A stretch of 64,000 bases of DNA from a bacterium BMS3Bbin03 (GTDB lineage Bacteria > Zhuqueibacterota > JdFR-76 > BMS3Abin05). The translations under genes were made by a program, and so were the position numbers. The stretch spans positions 74,418 through 138,417 of the forward strand of contig BDTM01000128.1 of assembly GCA_002898015.1 (NCBI GenBank), read 5' to 3'. Positions 5,586 to 13,494 of this stretch are shown one piece after another (positions within the stretch are counted from its first letter, which is position 1; each line of letters begins with the position of its first letter). The notes beneath the pieces are model-generated. The model made no database searches. It was given only the letters and a program-made list of their open reading frames with translations, and had not been told where the DNA came from.

Positions 5586-6776
5586 ATGGTTAAACTGCAT
5601 TTTGACTACAGGGATTTGTTCCGGTCCGCACGGTTGGCATTCAGCATCCAGCGCGTGTGGATTAATTTTATCGGTTTATTTTTTGGGTTCTTGCTGTATG
5701 ATGTGTTGACGTACGTCAGTTTTCTCACGGCCAGCCAGGGATTTATTCCCATGTGGGAACGCTTTGGCCTGTTTCCCTGCCTGTTCGGCATCGGGGGGCC
5801 ATGGTACAGCTGGGTCATTTATGCGATCGGCGTTTTGCTCCTGATTGCCATTGTTTTGCTGACAAACACGGCGGTCTCCCGCGCGGTTTACATGAATTTA
5901 AAGGGAGAGACTTTTTACACCTGGAAGGAAGCGTTCGGGTTTTCTCTCAAGCGCTGGGGATCGGTACTGGCTGCCCCTACGGCCATTATCGGAATTATTG
6001 TTTTCTTCGGCGTCGGCGCCATCATCATGGGCTTGTTGGGCCGTATCCCCTACGTCGGTGAATTGGGAACCGGTCTAATGACCCTCTTCTATATGAGCTC
6101 CTCGCTTTTTGTGTTTTTCCTGATTTTGGTTTTATTCGTCGCTTTCCTTTTTGTCCCTTCTATTATCGCCACAACCGATGAAGATGCGTTTGAAGCCGTT
6201 TTTCAATCATTCTCAATTTCGACCGGACAACCCTGGCGAATCATTGCGTACGGAGTGGTGGTGGCGGCAATCGAGATTCTGGGATTTGTGATCCTCGCTT
6301 GGGCTGTAAAAGAGGCTTTCCTGATATTTAACTTTCTCTTCTTAATTGGAATGGGCGACAAATTTTCCGATTTAATGAACAACGGAATGGCTCTTATTCA
6401 GGGATGGGTTTACCCGACATTAAACTGGATTCAATACGCTTTTGGCGATATGTCACGCTACTTCTATTTTGCGCGTGATTTCGTGCCGAAAGAATTGTCC
6501 GCCGTCATGCAAATTTCCGCCTGGTTCTTTGCCGTCCTGATGGGGGTTGTGGGCGGATTGATTGTTTCTTATGCAGAAGCGATCGGCAACTCCGGCTTGA
6601 CTCTGGTGTACCTGATTATGCGGAAACATCAGGATGATGAAAATCTCTTAGAAAGAAAAGAAGAAGAAGAGGAAGAAGAATCTTCCGAAGAAGAAAAAAC
6701 AGAAGAAACCCCTAAAGACGAGAAAACGGAAGAAAAAGGTGAATCTTCCGATTCCGAAGAGAAAAAAAGCGAATAA
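5586..6776 (+). CDS. Multi-pass membrane protein of unknown function with an acidic Glu/Ser-rich C-terminal tail
   Basis: 396 aa with 8 or more hydrophobic helices. The last roughly 50 residues are low-complexity (EEEEEEESSEEEKTEETPKDEKTEEKGESSDSEEKKSE). Strong promoter and RBS upstream. No recognisable family motif. Confidence 0.55.
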   Translation: MVKLHFDYRDLFRSARLAFSIQRVWINFIGLFFGFLLYDVLTYVSFLTASQGFIPMWERFGLFPCLFGIGGPWYSWVIYAIGVLLLIAIVLLTNTAVSRAVYMNLKGETFYTWKEAFGFSLKRWGSVLAAPTAIIGIIVFFGVGAIIMGLLGRIPYVGELGTGLMTLFYMSSSLFVFFLILVLFVAFLFVPSIIATTDEDAFEAVFQSFSISTGQPWRIIAYGVVVAAIEILGFVILAWAVKEAFLIFNFLFLIGMGDKFSDLMNNGMALIQGWVYPTLNWIQYAFGDMSRYFYFARDFVPKELSAVMQISAWFFAVLMGVVGGLIVSYAEAIGNSGLTLVYLIMRKHQDDENLLERKEEEEEEESSEEEKTEETPKDEKTEEKGESSDSEEKKSE

Positions 6777-6907: not shown

Positions 6908-8047
6908 ATGAAGCCTTTACAATACACCTATTCCGGAAATTTGAGTCTACAGGATCTTCTGGGTGAAAATATTCTTTACCGGGATTTGAATCCGGTTTCG
7001 GAGCACTACCCGTCTTTTCAAATGCTCCGCCGGAAATTGGGCATTCAACAGGCGTTTCCCCCGAGAAAAAACTCGCCTCAATACGTCGAAATCATTCTGG
7101 AATATTTGCGTCTCTCACAACCGGAGCCGTTTGATCAACTTCTTTTTTTCGGAGACACGCCCGGGTACGACGGCGCTTTGATTCGCAATTTATCGAAAAT
7201 AAATGATCTGCGAGTCTTCGGATTTATCGGAAAAGAAGCCCTTTCTGAAGCACCCGCGCTCGCGGACCACACCCCCATCTTTTTATCGAATCGATGGAAT
7301 TTGATTCCTGCGTTTTTAGGTCTCATTCAAAAAAAAGGCTTTCACAGGGACAGGCCGACCGCGGTGATCTTCGATATGGATAAAACCCTTATCGGGGCTC
7401 GCGGCAGGAATGATGCGGTTATTGATGAAGCCCGAATGGAGGGCGTCAAAAAACTCATTCAAAAAACACTGCAGGAAGAATGGGACAAGGCACATTTTTT
7501 TTTAATCTACAACACCTTTAATCAGGCCCGCTATCATTTCCTGACCGAAGACAACCAGGACTACCTGGCTTTTGTCTGTCTCATGATCCTTGCCAATGTT
7601 TGGCGTTTTGAAGAACTTTTGGACTTTTTCATTCAGAAGAAAATCACCACGTTTCAGGCGTTTTTGGATCAAACCGCCGCACGTTTACAAACACATATGT
7701 CACCCGCCGTTCAGGATTATTTTGAAGAGGTCTTTCCGGCTGTTTCAAGGGGCGATCCGACGCCATTTGTGTCCTTTAGGCGAATGGAATATCTGGCCAC
7801 TATTGAAAGAATCGATTCGGGTTTGAACCGTGATCCCGAAGAAATTCTGCGGTCTGAAATTACGCTGACTCAAGAGTTGGTCGATCTGATCACATTTTTG
7901 AAGGACAAAAACTTCGGGCCAATCTGGTGTATCTCCGACAAACCGCCGCAAAGCACTTTCCCCACCGAAAGCCTGGAAAAACAGGGTTACATTGCCCTGC
8001 ACAAGAAACCGATGAAAGTGGTCGGTCTTTCGTTGAAAAACCTTTGA
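6908..8047 (+). CDS. Hypothetical protein with a HAD-like motif I (DxDxT)
   Basis: 379 aa. It contains AVIFDMDKTLIGARG, which resembles HAD-superfamily motif I. The rest is not recognisable. Confidence 0.45.
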   Translation: MKPLQYTYSGNLSLQDLLGENILYRDLNPVSEHYPSFQMLRRKLGIQQAFPPRKNSPQYVEIILEYLRLSQPEPFDQLLFFGDTPGYDGALIRNLSKINDLRVFGFIGKEALSEAPALADHTPIFLSNRWNLIPAFLGLIQKKGFHRDRPTAVIFDMDKTLIGARGRNDAVIDEARMEGVKKLIQKTLQEEWDKAHFFLIYNTFNQARYHFLTEDNQDYLAFVCLMILANVWRFEELLDFFIQKKITTFQAFLDQTAARLQTHMSPAVQDYFEEVFPAVSRGDPTPFVSFRRMEYLATIERIDSGLNRDPEEILRSEITLTQELVDLITFLKDKNFGPIWCISDKPPQSTFPTESLEKQGYIALHKKPMKVVGLSLKNL

Positions 8048-8102: not shown

Positions 8103-8131
8103 TTGACAATTTCTTTAAAAAAGGTTAAAAT
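8103..8131 (+). promoter_or_regulatory. Sigma70-type promoter, TTGACA-17-TAAAAT
   Basis: Exact consensus hexamers with a 17-nt spacer, about 58 nt upstream of the ATG at 8190 (RBS AAAGGAG). It is preceded by a GGTCCG/CGGACC hairpin at 8066-8084. Confidence 0.6.
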
Positions 8132-8189
8132 ATATTGAGCCAAATTTAAAATGGTGGTGTGTGGGTCTTTAAAAAGAAAGGAGTGAGCC

Positions 8190-9350
8190 ATGATTACAAT
8201 CGAACTGGTGGAGGAGTTATTGGCGCTTAAAACCGATCCCTTTCTTATCAGCAGTTTGTATTTAAATGTCAATGAAAAGCGGTTCTCAAGAAAAGATTAT
8301 AAAATCCAATTAAAAGATCTGATAAAAAAACGCCGTCAGGATATTAAAAATATAGATTTCGATGAAGAAATCAAAACCTCGCTCGAGGAGGATTTCAAGA
8401 AAATGCTGCATTATGTGGATCAGGAGTTTTCAGGGCGCGGCGTCCGCAGTCTGGTGATTCTTTCTTCATCGAAAAAGAATTTCTGGCAGGTTTATCACCT
8501 GCCGCAGCCGGTAAAAAGCCGGCTGCTGATCAGCAGTGAACCTTATGTCCGTCCACTGATCGCGCTTCTGGATGAATATAAACGCTATTGTTCTGTGGTC
8601 ATCAGCCGCGATAAAGCACGGATTTTTGAAGTTTATCTGGGTGAAATTACGGAACACACGGAAATTATTAATCAGGTGCCCGGTAAAATACGAATTGCAG
8701 GCTGGTATGGTCTGGAAGAACGGCGAATCGAACGGCATATCGAAGATAAAGTCCATCATCATTTTAAAGAAATCGCAGATGCCACACTTAACTTATTTAA
8801 GAAAAAGGGGTTTGACTGGCTTATTCTCGGCGGGAAAAAGGAGAACCTGACCAGTTTTGAAAGTCATTTGCACACGTATTTACGCGATCGAATTGTGGGA
8901 AGAATCGATTTGGAGCCGGACACATCTCTTCACGATGCCCTCATGAAAACAAGGGAGGTGGCCCTGCGGGTGGAACGGGAAGAGGAAGAACAACTGATTC
9001 GCCGGTTATTGAATGAGGCCAATTCAAATGGCCTCGGGGTAATTGGAATAGAAGACACCTTGAAAGCGATCTGGCAAGGGCAGGTCAACACGTTAATTTT
9101 AAAAGATGATCTTGCCGTACCCGGAAGTATTTGCCCCACATGCGGCTACATGAGTACTGAAGAATCGGAGTGCCCGCACGACAGCATTCCGATGGACTTT
9201 ACACCGGATGTTCTGGAAGAGGCCATCGAATCGGCCATCATCCAAAACTGCCGGATTGAACACATCACGGAATCACAAGAATTGGACAATGTAGGTGGAA
9301 TTGGTGCCATCCTGCGGTTTAAAATTAATCGTACGGGTCTCAACTTCTAA
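8190..9350 (+). CDS. eRF1/Pelota-like protein (bacterial eRF1 paralogue, GGQ replaced by AGW) with a zinc ribbon
   Basis: Domains 2 and 3 align clearly with eukaryotic/archaeal eRF1. [38 protein letters not shown] corresponds to VPGKIRIAGWYGLEERRIERHIEDKVHHHFKEIADATLNLF. GVEDTLKALEMGAVEILIV corresponds to GIEDTLKAIWQGQVNTLIL. The C-terminal GFGGIGGILRY corresponds to GGIGAILRF. There is a CPTCG...ECPHD zinc-ribbon insertion. Confidence 0.6.
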   Translation: MITIELVEELLALKTDPFLISSLYLNVNEKRFSRKDYKIQLKDLIKKRRQDIKNIDFDEEIKTSLEEDFKKMLHYVDQEFSGRGVRSLVILSSSKKNFWQVYHLPQPVKSRLLISSEPYVRPLIALLDEYKRYCSVVISRDKARIFEVYLGEITEHTEIINQVPGKIRIAGWYGLEERRIERHIEDKVHHHFKEIADATLNLFKKKGFDWLILGGKKENLTSFESHLHTYLRDRIVGRIDLEPDTSLHDALMKTREVALRVEREEEEQLIRRLLNEANSNGLGVIGIEDTLKAIWQGQVNTLILKDDLAVPGSICPTCGYMSTEESECPHDSIPMDFTPDVLEEAIESAIIQNCRIEHITESQELDNVGGIGAILRFKINRTGLNF

Positions 9351-9389
9351 GTTTCCGGAGCCGCCCCGAGAAATAAGGGCGGCCCGTCT

Positions 9390-10460
9390 TTGTTTCCTAT
9401 GCATCACGATTGGGAAAGGAAATTCAACATGAATGAATTGCGGCGTGATCCTGTCAGCGGGCGATGGACGATCGTTTTAATGGGAAAAAAATTCAGATTA
9501 GAGGATTTAAGAAACCTCTTCCAGCCCATTACAAAGCAGGCCGTTGAATCCTGCCCATTTTGTGAAAACAATGAAGCACGAACACCCTCCGAAATTTATG
9601 CGCTTCGACCGCCTGGCTCCCGTCCCAATTCACCCAACTGGGAAATCCGGGTTATCCCAGACTATTACCCGATTCTCCAAACCCACGGTGATATCGATAA
9701 TCGGGCCGCCGGAATTTACGATGTGCTGAATGGGATCGGTGCTCACGAAATTTTAATCGAACATCCCAGTCACAATGTAAATCTCCCGGAATTTTCGGCG
9801 GCGCATACGGTGGATGTGTTAAAAACCATGCAGATGAGAATCATCGCCTTAAAAAAGGATCCGCGCTTTCGCTACGTGCTGATCCACAAAAATTACGGGG
9901 AGGCCACGGGAAATACGCTGAGGCACGCCTATTCACAAATTTTGGCGACGCCAATCACACCCCGCAGAATTCGGGATGAATTGCTAAATGCTAAGGAATA
10001 TTTTAGTTACAAAGAGCGCTGTGTGTTTTGCGATATTGTGGACGAAGAGACACTGAGGCAAAAGCGTATTGTGTTGGAAGACCAAAATTTCATCGCGTTT
10101 GAACCCTTTGCCTCAGGACGATCGTTTGAGACCTGGATAATGCCCCGCCGCCATGAAACTTTTTTTGAGACAAATGAAAATCTTCAATCGCTTGCAGAAA
10201 TGTTGATTGCCACGATGAAAAAAATAAAGACCCTGCTGGATGATCCTTCTTACATTATCACGCTGCACAACGGCCCGAATATTTCCGTCTCGGTAAAACG
10301 CCGGTACTGGAAAACCATTAGAAAGGATTACCATTGGCACTTTGAAATTGTGCCGAGGCTGCGCAGCCGGAGTAGTTTTGAATTGGGGTCGGGCATCCCC
10401 ATCAATCCGGTGGCGCCGGAAAAGGCCGCCCAGATATTACGAGAAGAGGAGTGGGAATGA
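9390..10460 (+). CDS. GalT-like HIT-superfamily nucleotidyltransferase (galactose-1-phosphate uridylyltransferase family, divergent)
   Basis: The likely true start is the ATG at 9429 (MNELRRDPVSGRWTIV, GalT-like N-terminus). CPFC zinc motif. First half-barrel GIGAHEILIEHPSHN. The second-half HIT-like motif is HWHFEI. The first-half HPHGQ position reads RHAYSQ. The stop overlaps the tdk start (ATGA). Confidence 0.6.
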   Translation: MFPMHHDWERKFNMNELRRDPVSGRWTIVLMGKKFRLEDLRNLFQPITKQAVESCPFCENNEARTPSEIYALRPPGSRPNSPNWEIRVIPDYYPILQTHGDIDNRAAGIYDVLNGIGAHEILIEHPSHNVNLPEFSAAHTVDVLKTMQMRIIALKKDPRFRYVLIHKNYGEATGNTLRHAYSQILATPITPRRIRDELLNAKEYFSYKERCVFCDIVDEETLRQKRIVLEDQNFIAFEPFASGRSFETWIMPRRHETFFETNENLQSLAEMLIATMKKIKTLLDDPSYIITLHNGPNISVSVKRRYWKTIRKDYHWHFEIVPRLRSRSSFELGSGIPINPVAPEKAAQILREEEWE

Positions 10461-11017
10461 ATATTTTTCGCGACCGGGAAACGGGCTGGATCGAAGTGAT
10501 CTGCGGGCCGATGTACAGCGGCAAAACAGAGGAACTCATTCGAAGGCTTCGCCGGGCACAAATTGCCAGACAAAAAGTGGCCATTTTTAAACCCAAAATC
10601 GACACCCGCTACAGTGACGACCACATCGTTTCCCACAGCGAACAACAGCTTCCTTCCGTTTCGGTTGAAACCGTGGATGAAATCCGCCGGCATTCGGCCG
10701 AGGCAGAAGTCATTGGAATTGATGAAGCGCAATTTTTTGGAATGGAGCTGATTCAGTTGTGCCAGAATTTGGCCGATAAGGGCAAACGCGTCATTGTGGC
10801 CGGCCTGGATCTGGACTACAGGGGGGAGCCGTTCGAGCCGATTCCGCAGCTCCTGGCGGTTGGGGAATACATTACGAAAACGCTTGCGATTTGTATGGTG
10901 TGCGGAAATCCGGCAAGCCGCACCCAGCGGCTCACGAAAGACGCTGCACGTGTTGTTGTGGGCGGGCAGGACATTTACGAAGCGAGATGCCGAAAATGCT
11001 TTGTTCCGCCTGTGTAA
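10457..11017 (+). CDS. tdk: Thymidine kinase
   Basis: MNIFRDRETGWIEVICGPMYSGKTEEL (P-loop) and C-terminal zinc-binding Cys pairs (CMVCG...CRKC). The ATG at 10457 overlaps the upstream stop. Confidence 0.9.
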   Translation: MNIFRDRETGWIEVICGPMYSGKTEELIRRLRRAQIARQKVAIFKPKIDTRYSDDHIVSHSEQQLPSVSVETVDEIRRHSAEAEVIGIDEAQFFGMELIQLCQNLADKGKRVIVAGLDLDYRGEPFEPIPQLLAVGEYITKTLAICMVCGNPASRTQRLTKDAARVVVGGQDIYEARCRKCFVPPV

Positions 11018-11047
11018 AAATCAAAATTACGGCCGTTTTTGATTTTT
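11016..11047 (+). other. Perfect 11-bp A/T-only inverted repeat with a CGGCCG-containing loop, immediately after the tdk stop
   Basis: AAAAATCAAAA-ttacggccgt-TTTTGATTTTT. This could be a weak terminator or attenuator. It has no G/C in the stem. Confidence 0.3.
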
Positions 11048-11150: not shown

Positions 11151-12419
11151 ATGGTTGAAAGGTTAATTAGTTTTTCGGGTATTTTTGTCTTGTTGGGCAT
11201 TGCCTGGTTAATGTCGAATAATCGAAAGAAAATTCATTTTCGCACGGTGTGGGTCGGTATTTCGCTTCAGCTCATCTTTGCCGTCTTCATTTTAAAAACC
11301 AGAGTGGGGCTGATGGTATTCGATTTTTCCCGAGTCGTGATTACCAAGCTGTTGGATTTTACGGATTACGGTTCGGTTTTTCTGTTTGGAAATCTTTACA
11401 GGGCAACACCGGACATTGTTAAGGGTTTGGGCAGCAGCGGGCCGTATCAGCTTATGAACAGTGCCACAGGCCGCTTTGTCAATATTGGGACGATCTTTGC
11501 GATTCACGTGCTTCCCACAATCATTTTCTTTGCTTCCATCATGTCCATTCTGTACCACCTGGGTATCATGCAAAAGTTTGTGGCCGCGATGGCCTGGGTC
11601 ATCAGCAGGGCCATGAAAGTGAGCGGGGCGGAATCGCTTTCGGCCGCATCCAATATTTTTGTGGGACAGACGGAGGCGCCTCTGGTCATTAAACCGTATA
11701 TTTCCGATATGACCATGTCGGAACTGATGGCGGTTATGGTGGGCGGGTTTGCCACGGTGGCCGGCGGCATTATGGCGGCTTATGTCCGGTTTGGAATCGA
11801 TCCGGGAAATTTAATGGCCGCCAGCGTGATGTCTGCACCGGCGTCGCTGGTCATGGCCAAAATTATTTACCCGGAAACAAAAACGCCGAAAACAGCCGAA
11901 ACTGTAAAGGTCTTTATCGAAAAAAAGACGGAGAATGTCATTGATGCGGCGGCACAAGGGGCCGCAGAAGGGCTGAAGCTTGCCCTGAATGTGGGCGCCA
12001 TGCTGCTCGCATTTATCGCGATAATCGCCATGATTAATTTTGGATTGGGATTTTTACACACCAGTTTAAAAGAGATTTTCGGGTATATTTTTATGCCGAT
12101 TTCTTTTTTCATGGGCGTACCCACAAAAGATCTGGTTGAATTTGGGAACTTGCTGGGGACAAAAATTTCCGTCAACGAATTTGTGGCTTATGTGGAACTG
12201 GGCGCGATAAAAGATCAGCTCTCACCCCGTACAGTCATTATCGCCACGTATGCCCTGTGCGGATTCGCCAATTTCAGTTCCATTGCGATCCAGATTGGCG
12301 GCATTGGCGGAATCGCACCCAATCGAAGGAGCGATCTGGCAAAATTGGGGATGCGGGCCATGTTTGGAGGCGCGCTGGCGTCCTGGCTCACCGCCACAAT
12401 CGCAGGGATGATTATTTAG
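11151..12419 (+). CDS. nupC: Concentrative nucleoside transporter (NupC/CNT family)
   Basis: 422-aa polytopic membrane protein. It has conserved CNT motifs (GQTEAPL, and GGIAPNRRSDLAKLGMRAMFGG at the C-terminus). Confidence 0.85.
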   Translation: MVERLISFSGIFVLLGIAWLMSNNRKKIHFRTVWVGISLQLIFAVFILKTRVGLMVFDFSRVVITKLLDFTDYGSVFLFGNLYRATPDIVKGLGSSGPYQLMNSATGRFVNIGTIFAIHVLPTIIFFASIMSILYHLGIMQKFVAAMAWVISRAMKVSGAESLSAASNIFVGQTEAPLVIKPYISDMTMSELMAVMVGGFATVAGGIMAAYVRFGIDPGNLMAASVMSAPASLVMAKIIYPETKTPKTAETVKVFIEKKTENVIDAAAQGAAEGLKLALNVGAMLLAFIAIIAMINFGLGFLHTSLKEIFGYIFMPISFFMGVPTKDLVEFGNLLGTKISVNEFVAYVELGAIKDQLSPRTVIIATYALCGFANFSSIAIQIGGIGGIAPNRRSDLAKLGMRAMFGGALASWLTATIAGMII

Positions 12420-12666
12420 GGCTTGAGTAAAGTCATCTTGAAAAAGATGCTTATTCAGCCGCAACGGAAAGATATGAATTTTAATGGTCCCCACAGTAAA
12501 AATGGGATTCGAAGATTTATTATATGATCTTAGTGCCTTCGGGACTTCGCGGCAGACAAATACCTGAATTATTATGAAAAAAGTGGCCGGGTACATCTGG
12601 AGACATCGGCGTGAAGTTGGCAGAGCGCTTTTCCACGCCGTTCAGAAGAAAATGAGACACCGAAAA

Positions 12667-13494
12667 ATGTCAAATTATAAACGTGACCTGAATGAAGCGA
12701 AGAAATTCCTGGAAAAACAGGTCGATCAATTTCCCAAAATAGGGATTATTCTGGGATCGGGATTGGGAAATTTTGCGGAGGAGGTCTCGGAAGCCGTCAG
12801 CATTCCGACAGAAAACATTCCGCACTACCCGGTTTCGACTGTGTCCGGTCATGCAGGGAAATGGGTGTTTGGGGTCATTTCAGGGAAGCGCGTGCTGGTC
12901 ATGAAGGGCCGGGTGCATTTTTACGAAGGCTACCCGATGCGGCAGGTGGTTTTTCCGGTACATCTCATGGGCGAGACCGGCATCAAAACCCTGATTGTAA
13001 CAAACGCTTCCGGCGGCATTAATCCGCTGTTCCGGCCGGGTGATTTGATGCTCATTGAAGATCACATCAATCTCTTTTTCACGAATCCGATGATCGGGGG
13101 TGAAGAATCGGCATTTGGAGCGCGTTTTTCGGACATGTCGCACCCGTACGATCCGGAGCTGTGCGCACTGACTGAAAAAATCGCAAGTGAGGAAAAAATT
13201 TTGCTGCGAAAAGGCATATTGGTGGGAAGCCGCGGCCCGACTTACGAAACGGCTGCTGAGATTCGCATGTTTCAGCGTCTGCGCGGAGACGCAGCCACCA
13301 TGTCCACCGTACCCGAAGTAATTGCAGCAAACCACAGAGGGATGAAGGTCCTGGGAATCTCCTGTATTACCAATATGGCCACAGGATTCTCGGCACAGCC
13401 GTTATCGCATAAAGAGGTGACAGTCGTCGCCGATCAGGTCAAAGAAAAATTTCATCGCCTCGTGAAAGCAATCTTGAAAGCAATGCCGGACTAA
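12667..13494 (+). CDS. punA: Purine nucleoside phosphorylase (PNP family 2, PunA-type)
   Basis: GIILGSGLG, GHAGKWVFG, VMKGRVHFYEGY, IVTNASGGIN and MLIEDHIN motifs. The start is chosen at the internal ATG 12667 (MSNYKRDLNEAKKFL), which fits PNP N-termini. The ORF track begins at 12574. Confidence 0.8.
   Translation: MSNYKRDLNEAKKFLEKQVDQFPKIGIILGSGLGNFAEEVSEAVSIPTENIPHYPVSTVSGHAGKWVFGVISGKRVLVMKGRVHFYEGYPMRQVVFPVHLMGETGIKTLIVTNASGGINPLFRPGDLMLIEDHINLFFTNPMIGGEESAFGARFSDMSHPYDPELCALTEKIASEEKILLRKGILVGSRGPTYETAAEIRMFQRLRGDAATMSTVPEVIAANHRGMKVLGISCITNMATGFSAQPLSHKEVTVVADQVKEKFHRLVKAILKAMPD

Follow-up and report, generated by a model that had tools for sequence, protein, structure and literature searches.

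We analysed a 64-kb stretch of DNA (64,000 nucleotides, referred to here as the window) from the bacterium BMS3Bbin03, in which an open reading frame (ORF) at positions 8190 to 9350 encodes a protein of 386 amino acids (aa). Because Pfam and NCBIfam profiles, a phmmer search of PDB sequences and a Foldseek comparison of an AlphaFold2 model agree, the protein is assigned to the bacterial members of the aeRF1 superfamily, nearest to the Balon ribosome hibernation factors yet in a separate subfamily, and it is probably a Balon-like, non-hydrolytic hibernation factor of the ribosomal A site. The features of the gene, referred to here as baeRF1, are as follows.

The baeRF1 family 10 protein

8177..8183, + strand: Shine-Dalgarno-like AAAGGAG, 6 nt 5' of the baeRF1 ATG, read from the sequence
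8190..9350, + strand: baeRF1 family 10/Balon-like protein, 386 aa, uninterrupted ORF
8190..8540, + strand: N-terminal domain, residues 1-117, Balon/eRF1-type alpha-beta, from alignments to Balon-family hidden Markov models (HMMs) and PDB Balon chains
8541..8957, + strand: middle (RNase H-fold) domain, residues 118-256, from the Pfam PF18854 envelope 118-256
8697..8705, + strand: A170-G171-W172, at the position of the eRF1 G-G-Q, from the eRF1/aRF1 alignment and the family motif
8982..9326, + strand: C-terminal eRF1_3/Pelota-type domain, residues 265-379, from Pfam PF03465 (E 1.4e-7)
9132..9182, + strand: zinc ribbon C315-x2-C318 ... C328-x2-D331 within domain 3

The protein has the three-domain layout of aeRF1 proteins, i.e., an N domain, an RNase H-fold middle domain and a Pelota/eRF1_3 C domain. 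The similarity to eRF1 on which the original prediction was based was reproduced with phmmer, where GIEDTLKAIWQGQVNTLIL pairs with GVEDTLKALEMGAVEILIV of human eRF1, and GGIGAILRF with GGIGGILRY in the same comparison of the 386-aa protein with eRF1. Eleven metagenome contigs carry the identical protein sequence, and at least one has the label marine metagenome. A second baeRF1 copy was not found within the window.

Against the Pfam model baeRF_family10 (PF18854), the protein scored 111.3 bits, where the gathering threshold is 27.1. The top NCBIfam match was the MSMEG_1130-family ribosome hibernation factor (E 5e-27), with residues 11-377 aligned to positions 11-387 of a model of 387, followed by the aRF1/eRF1 model (E 1e-24), which aligned only from residue 100; the families of P. 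urativorans Balon (E 4e-22) and Rv2629 were also matched. The score with the classical aRF1/eRF1 model TIGR03676 (87 bits) is below its cutoff of 234.7. In the phmmer search of PDB sequences the best match was the Balon Msmeg1130 (8v9j_z, E 2e-14, residues 11-376), and eRF1 chains ranked after Balon at ~1e-8. An AlphaFold2 model made with 30 homologues as input has a mean predicted local distance difference test score (pLDDT) of 88. With this model Foldseek placed ribosome-bound Msmeg1130 Balon at the top (E 2e-25, template modelling score 0.66), aRF1/eRF1 and P. urativorans Balon next, and Pelota at ~1e-10; an unrelated fold, the outcome that would have overturned the original prediction, was not what the search returned. 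Two other assignments were rejected: Pelota/Dom34 (TIGR00111), as the N domain is not of the Pelota type and the score is below the model cutoff, and Vms1/VLRF1, a clade with a GxxQ-type loop, as VLRF1 is not among the Pfam matches at E<=0.01 and the loop holds no Gln.

The product of 8190-9350 belongs to baeRF1 family 10, a very large family of Balon relatives that is known and has already been named. A word-indexed search gave 179 homologues at E<=1e-5, with labels that include Eisenbacteria, Latescibacteria, Acidobacteria, Atribacteria, Manganitrophaceae, Chlamydiae, Syntrophaceae and Binatia, and a HMMER profile search of 1.84 billion cluster representatives gave 8,384 at E<=1e-3 and 1,586 at E<=1e-30. 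The baeRF-1 clade and its families were described in 2019 by Burroughs and Aravind (PMC6514570), and Balon homologues are reported in ~20% of representative bacteria (Helena-Bueno et al., PMC10901736), so that the earlier view of eRF1/Pelota-fold proteins as rare in bacteria has to be given up. The branch of the 8190-9350 product was met almost only in metagenome-assembled genomes in this analysis.

One homologue bears the NCBI name "baeRF10 domain-containing protein". Homologues that lack the Gln are called "peptide chain release factor 1" or "peptide chain release factor subunit 1" by many sources, names that probably misstate their function, and such genes should not carry the name "peptide chain release factor subunit 1".

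Loop, N domain and zinc ribbon

In the phmmer alignments I169-A170-G171-W172 pairs with R-G-G-Q of human eRF1 and with K-G-G-Q of archaeal aRF1, in agreement with the reading IAGW given by the original prediction, and A-G-W at residues 170-172 stands in place of the classical GGQ. A GGQ hidden by a frameshift was rejected: the ORF is uninterrupted, and orthologues at 73-95% identity likewise carry AGW. An alignment of 30 sequences, including those with Eisenbacteria, Acidobacteria and Atribacteria labels, conserves the family motif [AGS]-G-[WFY]-x-G-x-E-E-R-R-I-E-R-H; loop and next helix together read VPGKV-x-x-[A/G/S]-G-[W/F/Y]-x-G-L-E-E-R-R-I-E-R-H-I-E-D-H, with G174, E177, I180 and R182 invariant. 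In the AlphaFold2 model the loop is exposed, is predicted with lower confidence (pLDDT 57-67) and lies immediately ahead of a long helix (175-206), as in eRF1.

The loop motif could be read in 112 of the 120 nearest homologues, the commonest tripeptides being AGW (28), GGW (23), GGF (17), SGW (17) and GGY (12). The position of the Gln is occupied by W, F or Y in 105 of these 112 and by Gln in none. Among the best 150 cluster representatives it is W in 85, F in 27 and Y in 6 (aromatic in 118/150) and Q in 5; a few of these representatives read GGxSQ. When point mutants were scored against the Pfam family 10 model, W was favoured over Q by 3.1 bits, and Y173Q, which places a Gln one residue downstream, gained only 1.9 bits. 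The string GGQ does occur in 23 homologues; in the one checked (P0041, LIIGGQAEIV) it appears to belong to the later LIIGG strand, outside the loop. Because the catalytic Gln is missing, this eRF1-superfamily protein is most likely non-hydrolytic.

A variant of the loop was seen in Manganitrophaceae homologues (P0045 and P0062; L012, L015 and L019), where the catalytic-type loop contains an insertion of ~45 residues. The insertion repeats the YGLAERRIER segment (…EYGLAERRIERRGRR…SGVYGLAERKIERH…), i.e., it is an internal duplication of the loop-helix junction, and the aligned tip residue is Val.

In the N domain, alignments with Balon-family HMMs and with Balon chains of the PDB start at residue 11 or 22, and that with the aRF1 model only at residue 100. 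The NIKS stop-codon motif was not found in the 386-aa protein nor in the 120 homologues. The zinc ribbon that had been noted in domain 3 is present, with CPTCG at residue 315 and ECPHD at residue 327. It is not a new insertion, because the ribbon is a classical aeRF1 feature that is kept in family 10 along with the standard three-domain architecture (PMC6514570). All four Cys are found in 130 of the 150 best representatives; in the clade of the window protein the position of the fourth ligand holds Asp instead of Cys (C-P-H/I/Y-D), which is seen in 16 of the 120 nearest homologues, the others having Cys. Many baeRF-1 families have a two-strand insert at the site of the zinc ribbon (Burroughs and Aravind, PMC6514570), and a beta-hairpin insertion in the C-terminal domain of Balon contacts EF-Tu (Helena-Bueno et al., PMC10901736). 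Provided that the baeRF-1 insert and the Balon hairpin share one insertion site, the zinc ribbon would by analogy probably face the GTPase.

Flanking signals and neighbouring genes

8103..8131, + strand: sigma-70-like promoter candidate TTGACA-17 nt-TAAAAT, 11/12 matches, best in 6 kb
9356..9397, + strand: terminator-like GC-rich hairpin and U-rich tract, between the baeRF1 and GalT-like genes
9429..10460, + strand: GalT-like HIT branch III protein, 343 aa (1z84, E 1.4e-49)
10457..11017, + strand: thymidine kinase (tdk), 186 aa by independent calls, its start overlapping the GalT-like stop (ATGA 10457-10460)
11151..12419, + strand: NupC-type nucleoside transporter
12574..13494, + strand: nucleoside phosphorylase, PNP/MTAP-like (PNP_UDP_1 in the orthologous locus)

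The baeRF1 gene has its own sigma-70-like promoter candidate and its own terminator-like hairpin. The promoter-like site that had been called a perfect consensus is present, one match short of perfect. Promoter-like matches are in total as numerous in the region as expected from shuffled sequence; orthologues have comparable elements on their 5' side, TTGATT-17-TAAAAT in L001 and TTGACT-17-TATATT in L003. In the gap behind baeRF1 the GC-rich hairpin is followed by UCUUUGUUU; an 86-nt fragment of the hairpin region has -30 kcal/mol (z -2.6). The 9356..9397 hairpin was not listed by a simple terminator scan. At the same position L001 and L002, the two closest relatives, have a clearer hairpin-plus-U-run and a gene spacing of ~80-95 nt, and the presence of such hairpins between baeRF1 and the GalT-like gene in all three speaks against a simple operon.

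The gap of 39 nt originally given would require a GalT-like start at TTG 9390. The start is instead placed at ATG 9429, giving a gap of 78 nt, because the orthologues all start with MNELRRDP and independent calls on identical metagenome contigs give 343 aa. The spacing of the two genes is ~13 nt or less in L003, L004 and L006 (12-13 nt in L006, still less in L004 by crude ORF calls) and 12-13 nt in L058, an additional metagenome locus of the same lineage, which keeps the pair.

The best solved relative of the GalT-like protein is the ADP-glucose phosphorylase At5g18200 of Arabidopsis (PDB 1z84), matched over the full length (E 1.4e-49). The CxxC and His residues of the zinc site and the H-x-[H]-S-Q context align between the two proteins, whereas HAYSQ stands against HSHSQ, so that Tyr replaces the nucleophilic His. 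With TIGR00209 galT the protein scored 72.3 bits, below the cutoff of 102.1 for galactose-1-phosphate uridylyltransferase. The residue at the nucleophile position is Tyr in the window and in L001-L004 and His in L006; across 120 GalT-like homologues (P0266-P0385) it is His in ~66, Tyr in 26, Arg in 23 and Phe in 5, and the C-terminal half keeps an almost invariant H-W-H-x-E. Judged by its sequence, the 9429-10460 product is not a bona fide GalT, because the nucleophilic His is variable in the family and Tyr here; the pattern points to a classical active site that was either lost repeatedly or shifted to the other half of the pseudo-dimer. A connection of the Tyr variant with baeRF1 adjacency was rejected: L006 has His yet is adjacent, and P0299 has Tyr yet is not.

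To compare gene neighbourhoods, 49 loci were fetched, one genome per species, which with the window make 50. The GalT-like gene and tdk adjoin baeRF1, as originally described, with the ATGA overlap at 10457-10460. A GalT-like gene directly follows baeRF1 in six of the 50 loci (L001-L004, L006 and the window). These loci belong to a single lineage, with the labels "Deferribacteres" or candidate division KSB1, within which baeRF1 identity to the window goes down to 43%. The block runs on into tdk, nupC and the nucleoside phosphorylase in five of the six (the window, L001, L002, L004 and L006), and also in L058. The genes upstream of the block in L004 and L006 are unlike those of the window, and therefore the block is conserved beyond general synteny. 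Other KSB1/Caldithrix genomes carry the same GalT-like family (47-51% identity) with no adjoining baeRF1. Adjacency is thus conserved within one lineage and not broadly, and the functional link that had been drawn between baeRF1, the GalT-like gene and tdk is lineage-specific and weak, because the pair is confined to that lineage and the neighbours elsewhere differ.

In other lineages baeRF10 has other neighbours. In eight Atribacteria loci the order on one strand is nucleoside phosphorylase (MTAP-like), small membrane protein, MtnA and baeRF10; these loci (L020, L021, L024, L025, L032, L034, L035 and L036) make Atribacteria the second lineage in which baeRF10 has a nucleoside phosphorylase close by. 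Synergistales have rpoD, baeRF10 and enolase, Acidobacteria a divergent homoserine kinase beside baeRF10, and Eisenbacteria and Calditrichota a rhomboid gene. In Kryptoniota and Bacteroidota baeRF10 is followed by galK; the baeRF1 relatives that have this galactokinase gene next to them (L042-L045 and L047) are at 24-30% identity, with a loop that lacks the G-G-aromatic motif. The occurrence of galK beside a distant baeRF1, and of a GalT-like gene in the window, may go back to a common ancestral arrangement or be coincidental.

Where the GalT-like gene of KSB1/Caldithrix genomes is separate from baeRF1, it again lies near a ribosome/rRNA-related gene, a different one (ybeY): in L050, L051, L053 and L054 (5001-6038 and upstream) it comes directly after a phoH, 7TMR-HD and ybeY cluster, with corC as well in Caldithrix. 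Upstream of baeRF1 in the window are two conserved genes that gave no convincing family match, one (5586-6776) for a polytopic membrane protein of 396 aa whose long acidic tail is rich in Glu, Lys and Ser, the other (6908-8047) for a 379-aa protein with only a sub-threshold HAD-hydrolase match; both are syntenic only in L001 and L002. PADLOC gave no anti-phage defence match for the baeRF1 gene or three neighbours. Across the window, which has a GC content of 46.9%, there are no tRNA genes and no Rfam families at the gathering threshold.

Predicted mode of action and alternatives

Balon, Msmeg1130 and Rv2629 bind the A site without NIKS and GGQ motifs and hibernate ribosomes with EF-Tu (PMC10901736). 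The structural definition of Balon in that study, an aeRF1 fold without NIKS and without GGQ, describes the 386-aa protein as well, and non-catalytic insertion into the A site has been predicted for the baeRF-1 families that lack the Gln (PMC6514570). With the three characterized proteins the window protein shares the three-domain aeRF1 fold, the best full-length sequence and structure matches, including the N domain, the absence of NIKS and GGQ, and an insertion in the C-terminal domain. With the baeRF-1 clade (PF18854) it shares direct Pfam membership, the standard three domains and the retained zinc ribbon. It is unlike aRF1/eRF1 in the change of Gln to Trp and of the first Gly to Ala, in the lack of NIKS and in an N domain that lies outside the aRF1 model alignment.

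By analogy with Balon, the protein would enter the ribosomal A site under starvation or stress as a mimic of tRNA or a release factor. The N domain would touch the decoding centre but read no stop codon, and the loop of the middle domain would extend to the peptidyl-transferase centre, where W172, the conserved aromatic in place of Gln, would fill the site without hydrolysis of peptidyl-tRNA; we infer that the aromatic either lodges in that centre's A-site cleft or stacks on A2602. The C domain and zinc ribbon would point toward a translational GTPase, probably EF-Tu. Stop-codon-independent binding, no peptide release, EF-Tu contact and a stress-silencing role would together leave ribosomes reversibly silenced and protected.

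Several observations weigh against a role as a Balon-like hibernation factor or set the protein apart from Balon. The NCBIfam equivalog cutoffs of NF052287, NF052288 and NF052289 were missed by far (79 vs 330, 95 vs 480 and 52 vs 320 bits), and identity to solved Balons is ~15-18%, which places the protein in a different subfamily; baeRF1 family 10 is a sister group of the experimentally characterized Balon hibernation factors. The zinc ribbon is intact here, whereas Balon has a two-strand hairpin. The loop is short and aRF1-like, with VPGKIRIAGWYG against VPGKQRKGGQSA and set apart from aRF1 by a 3-residue gap only, whereas the loop region of Balon is divergent and the equivalent region of Msmeg1130 resembles aRF1 (VPGKQRKGGQSA) far less than this loop does. 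At the position of the HP motif, with which Balon contacts the decoding centre, P. urativorans EHPAND pairs with KRFSRK, i.e., R-F, in a weak alignment (E 0.03). No HPF/RaiA or classical stress gene was seen to adjoin baeRF1 in the 50 loci, and no HPF/RaiA was found in the window by tblastn with E. coli HPF/RaiA seeds, a weak test. Family 10 has been reported to have a well-conserved Gln and to be possibly catalytic (Burroughs and Aravind, PMC6514570); in the 386-aa protein the aromatic W172 pairs with the Gln of eRF1 and aRF1, and the present data depart from the paper on this point, Gln bearers being a small minority of the nearest relatives.

These differences can also be read as the marks of a mechanistically distinct branch of Balon-like factors. 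It is conceivable, although we hold it only tentatively, that the G-G-W/F/Y clade, with its aRF1-like loop and zinc ribbon, uses the aromatic to plug the hydrophobic A-site cleft or to stack on A2602 or on the CCA end in the P site, and that in the lineage of the window it is perhaps coupled to the HIT and salvage genes. If true, the aromatic plug would be a route to blocking the centre unlike that of Balon, which has a lasso loop around A2602 and a bL27 trap in addition to the hairpin that binds EF-Tu(GDP) (PMC10901736). The remaining interest of the protein lies in this conserved G-G-aromatic loop in an experimentally unstudied subfamily; a ribosome-bound structure of one member would show how a release factor is converted into a silencing factor, and whether the aromatic residue is key.

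Rescue in the manner of Pelota/Dom34, in which the Gln-less protein would enter stalled ribosomes and promote subunit splitting or recycling without peptide hydrolysis, was the analogy chosen in the original prediction. The protein shares with Dom34 both the superfamily and the missing catalytic Gln, and Dom34-like relief of stalled ribosomes has been proposed as one option for baeRF-1 proteins (Burroughs and Aravind, PMC6514570). The non-hydrolytic part of that analogy holds; Balon is nearer than Pelota in the searches described above, and we regard a Pelota-like role as unlikely.

Unlikely, too, is a function that baeRF1 shares with the downstream HIT enzyme of the GalT-like type and with nucleoside salvage, such as one in which ribosome silencing is tied to the turnover of nucleotides or alarmones (NpnN, nucleotide-sugar) in starvation. 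Such coupling would fit the block of baeRF1, GalT-like gene, (radical SAM), tdk, nupC and nucleoside phosphorylase that is kept while the upstream flanks change, the short baeRF1/GalT-like spacing in L004, L006 and L058, and the nucleoside phosphorylase and MtnA just upstream of baeRF10 in the eight Atribacteria loci. It is opposed by the limitation of the pair to a single lineage (6/50 loci), the same GalT-like family without a baeRF1 neighbour in other KSB1/Caldithrix genomes, the terminator-like hairpins between the genes in the window, L001 and L002, and the unrelated genes (rhomboid, galK, enolase, rpoD and homoserine kinase) that baeRF10 adjoins elsewhere.

Bacterial RF1 mutants of the Gln keep partial release activity in vitro, whereas the glycines are critical. 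That the protein is still a peptidyl-tRNA hydrolase for special circumstances, its G-G backbone positioning water without a Gln side chain, is improbable: the aRF1-like loop VPGK-x-R-x-[G/A/S]-G does retain a tiny residue and Gly, some relatives retain Gln (5/150 aligned, and the few with GGxSQ) and family 10 has been flagged as possibly active (PMC6514570), but the Gln position is W/F/Y in 118/150 representatives and 105/112 nearest readable homologues, a bulky aromatic would be expected to exclude rather than position water, the Pfam family 10 model prefers W to Q, and the window protein has Ala for the first Gly.

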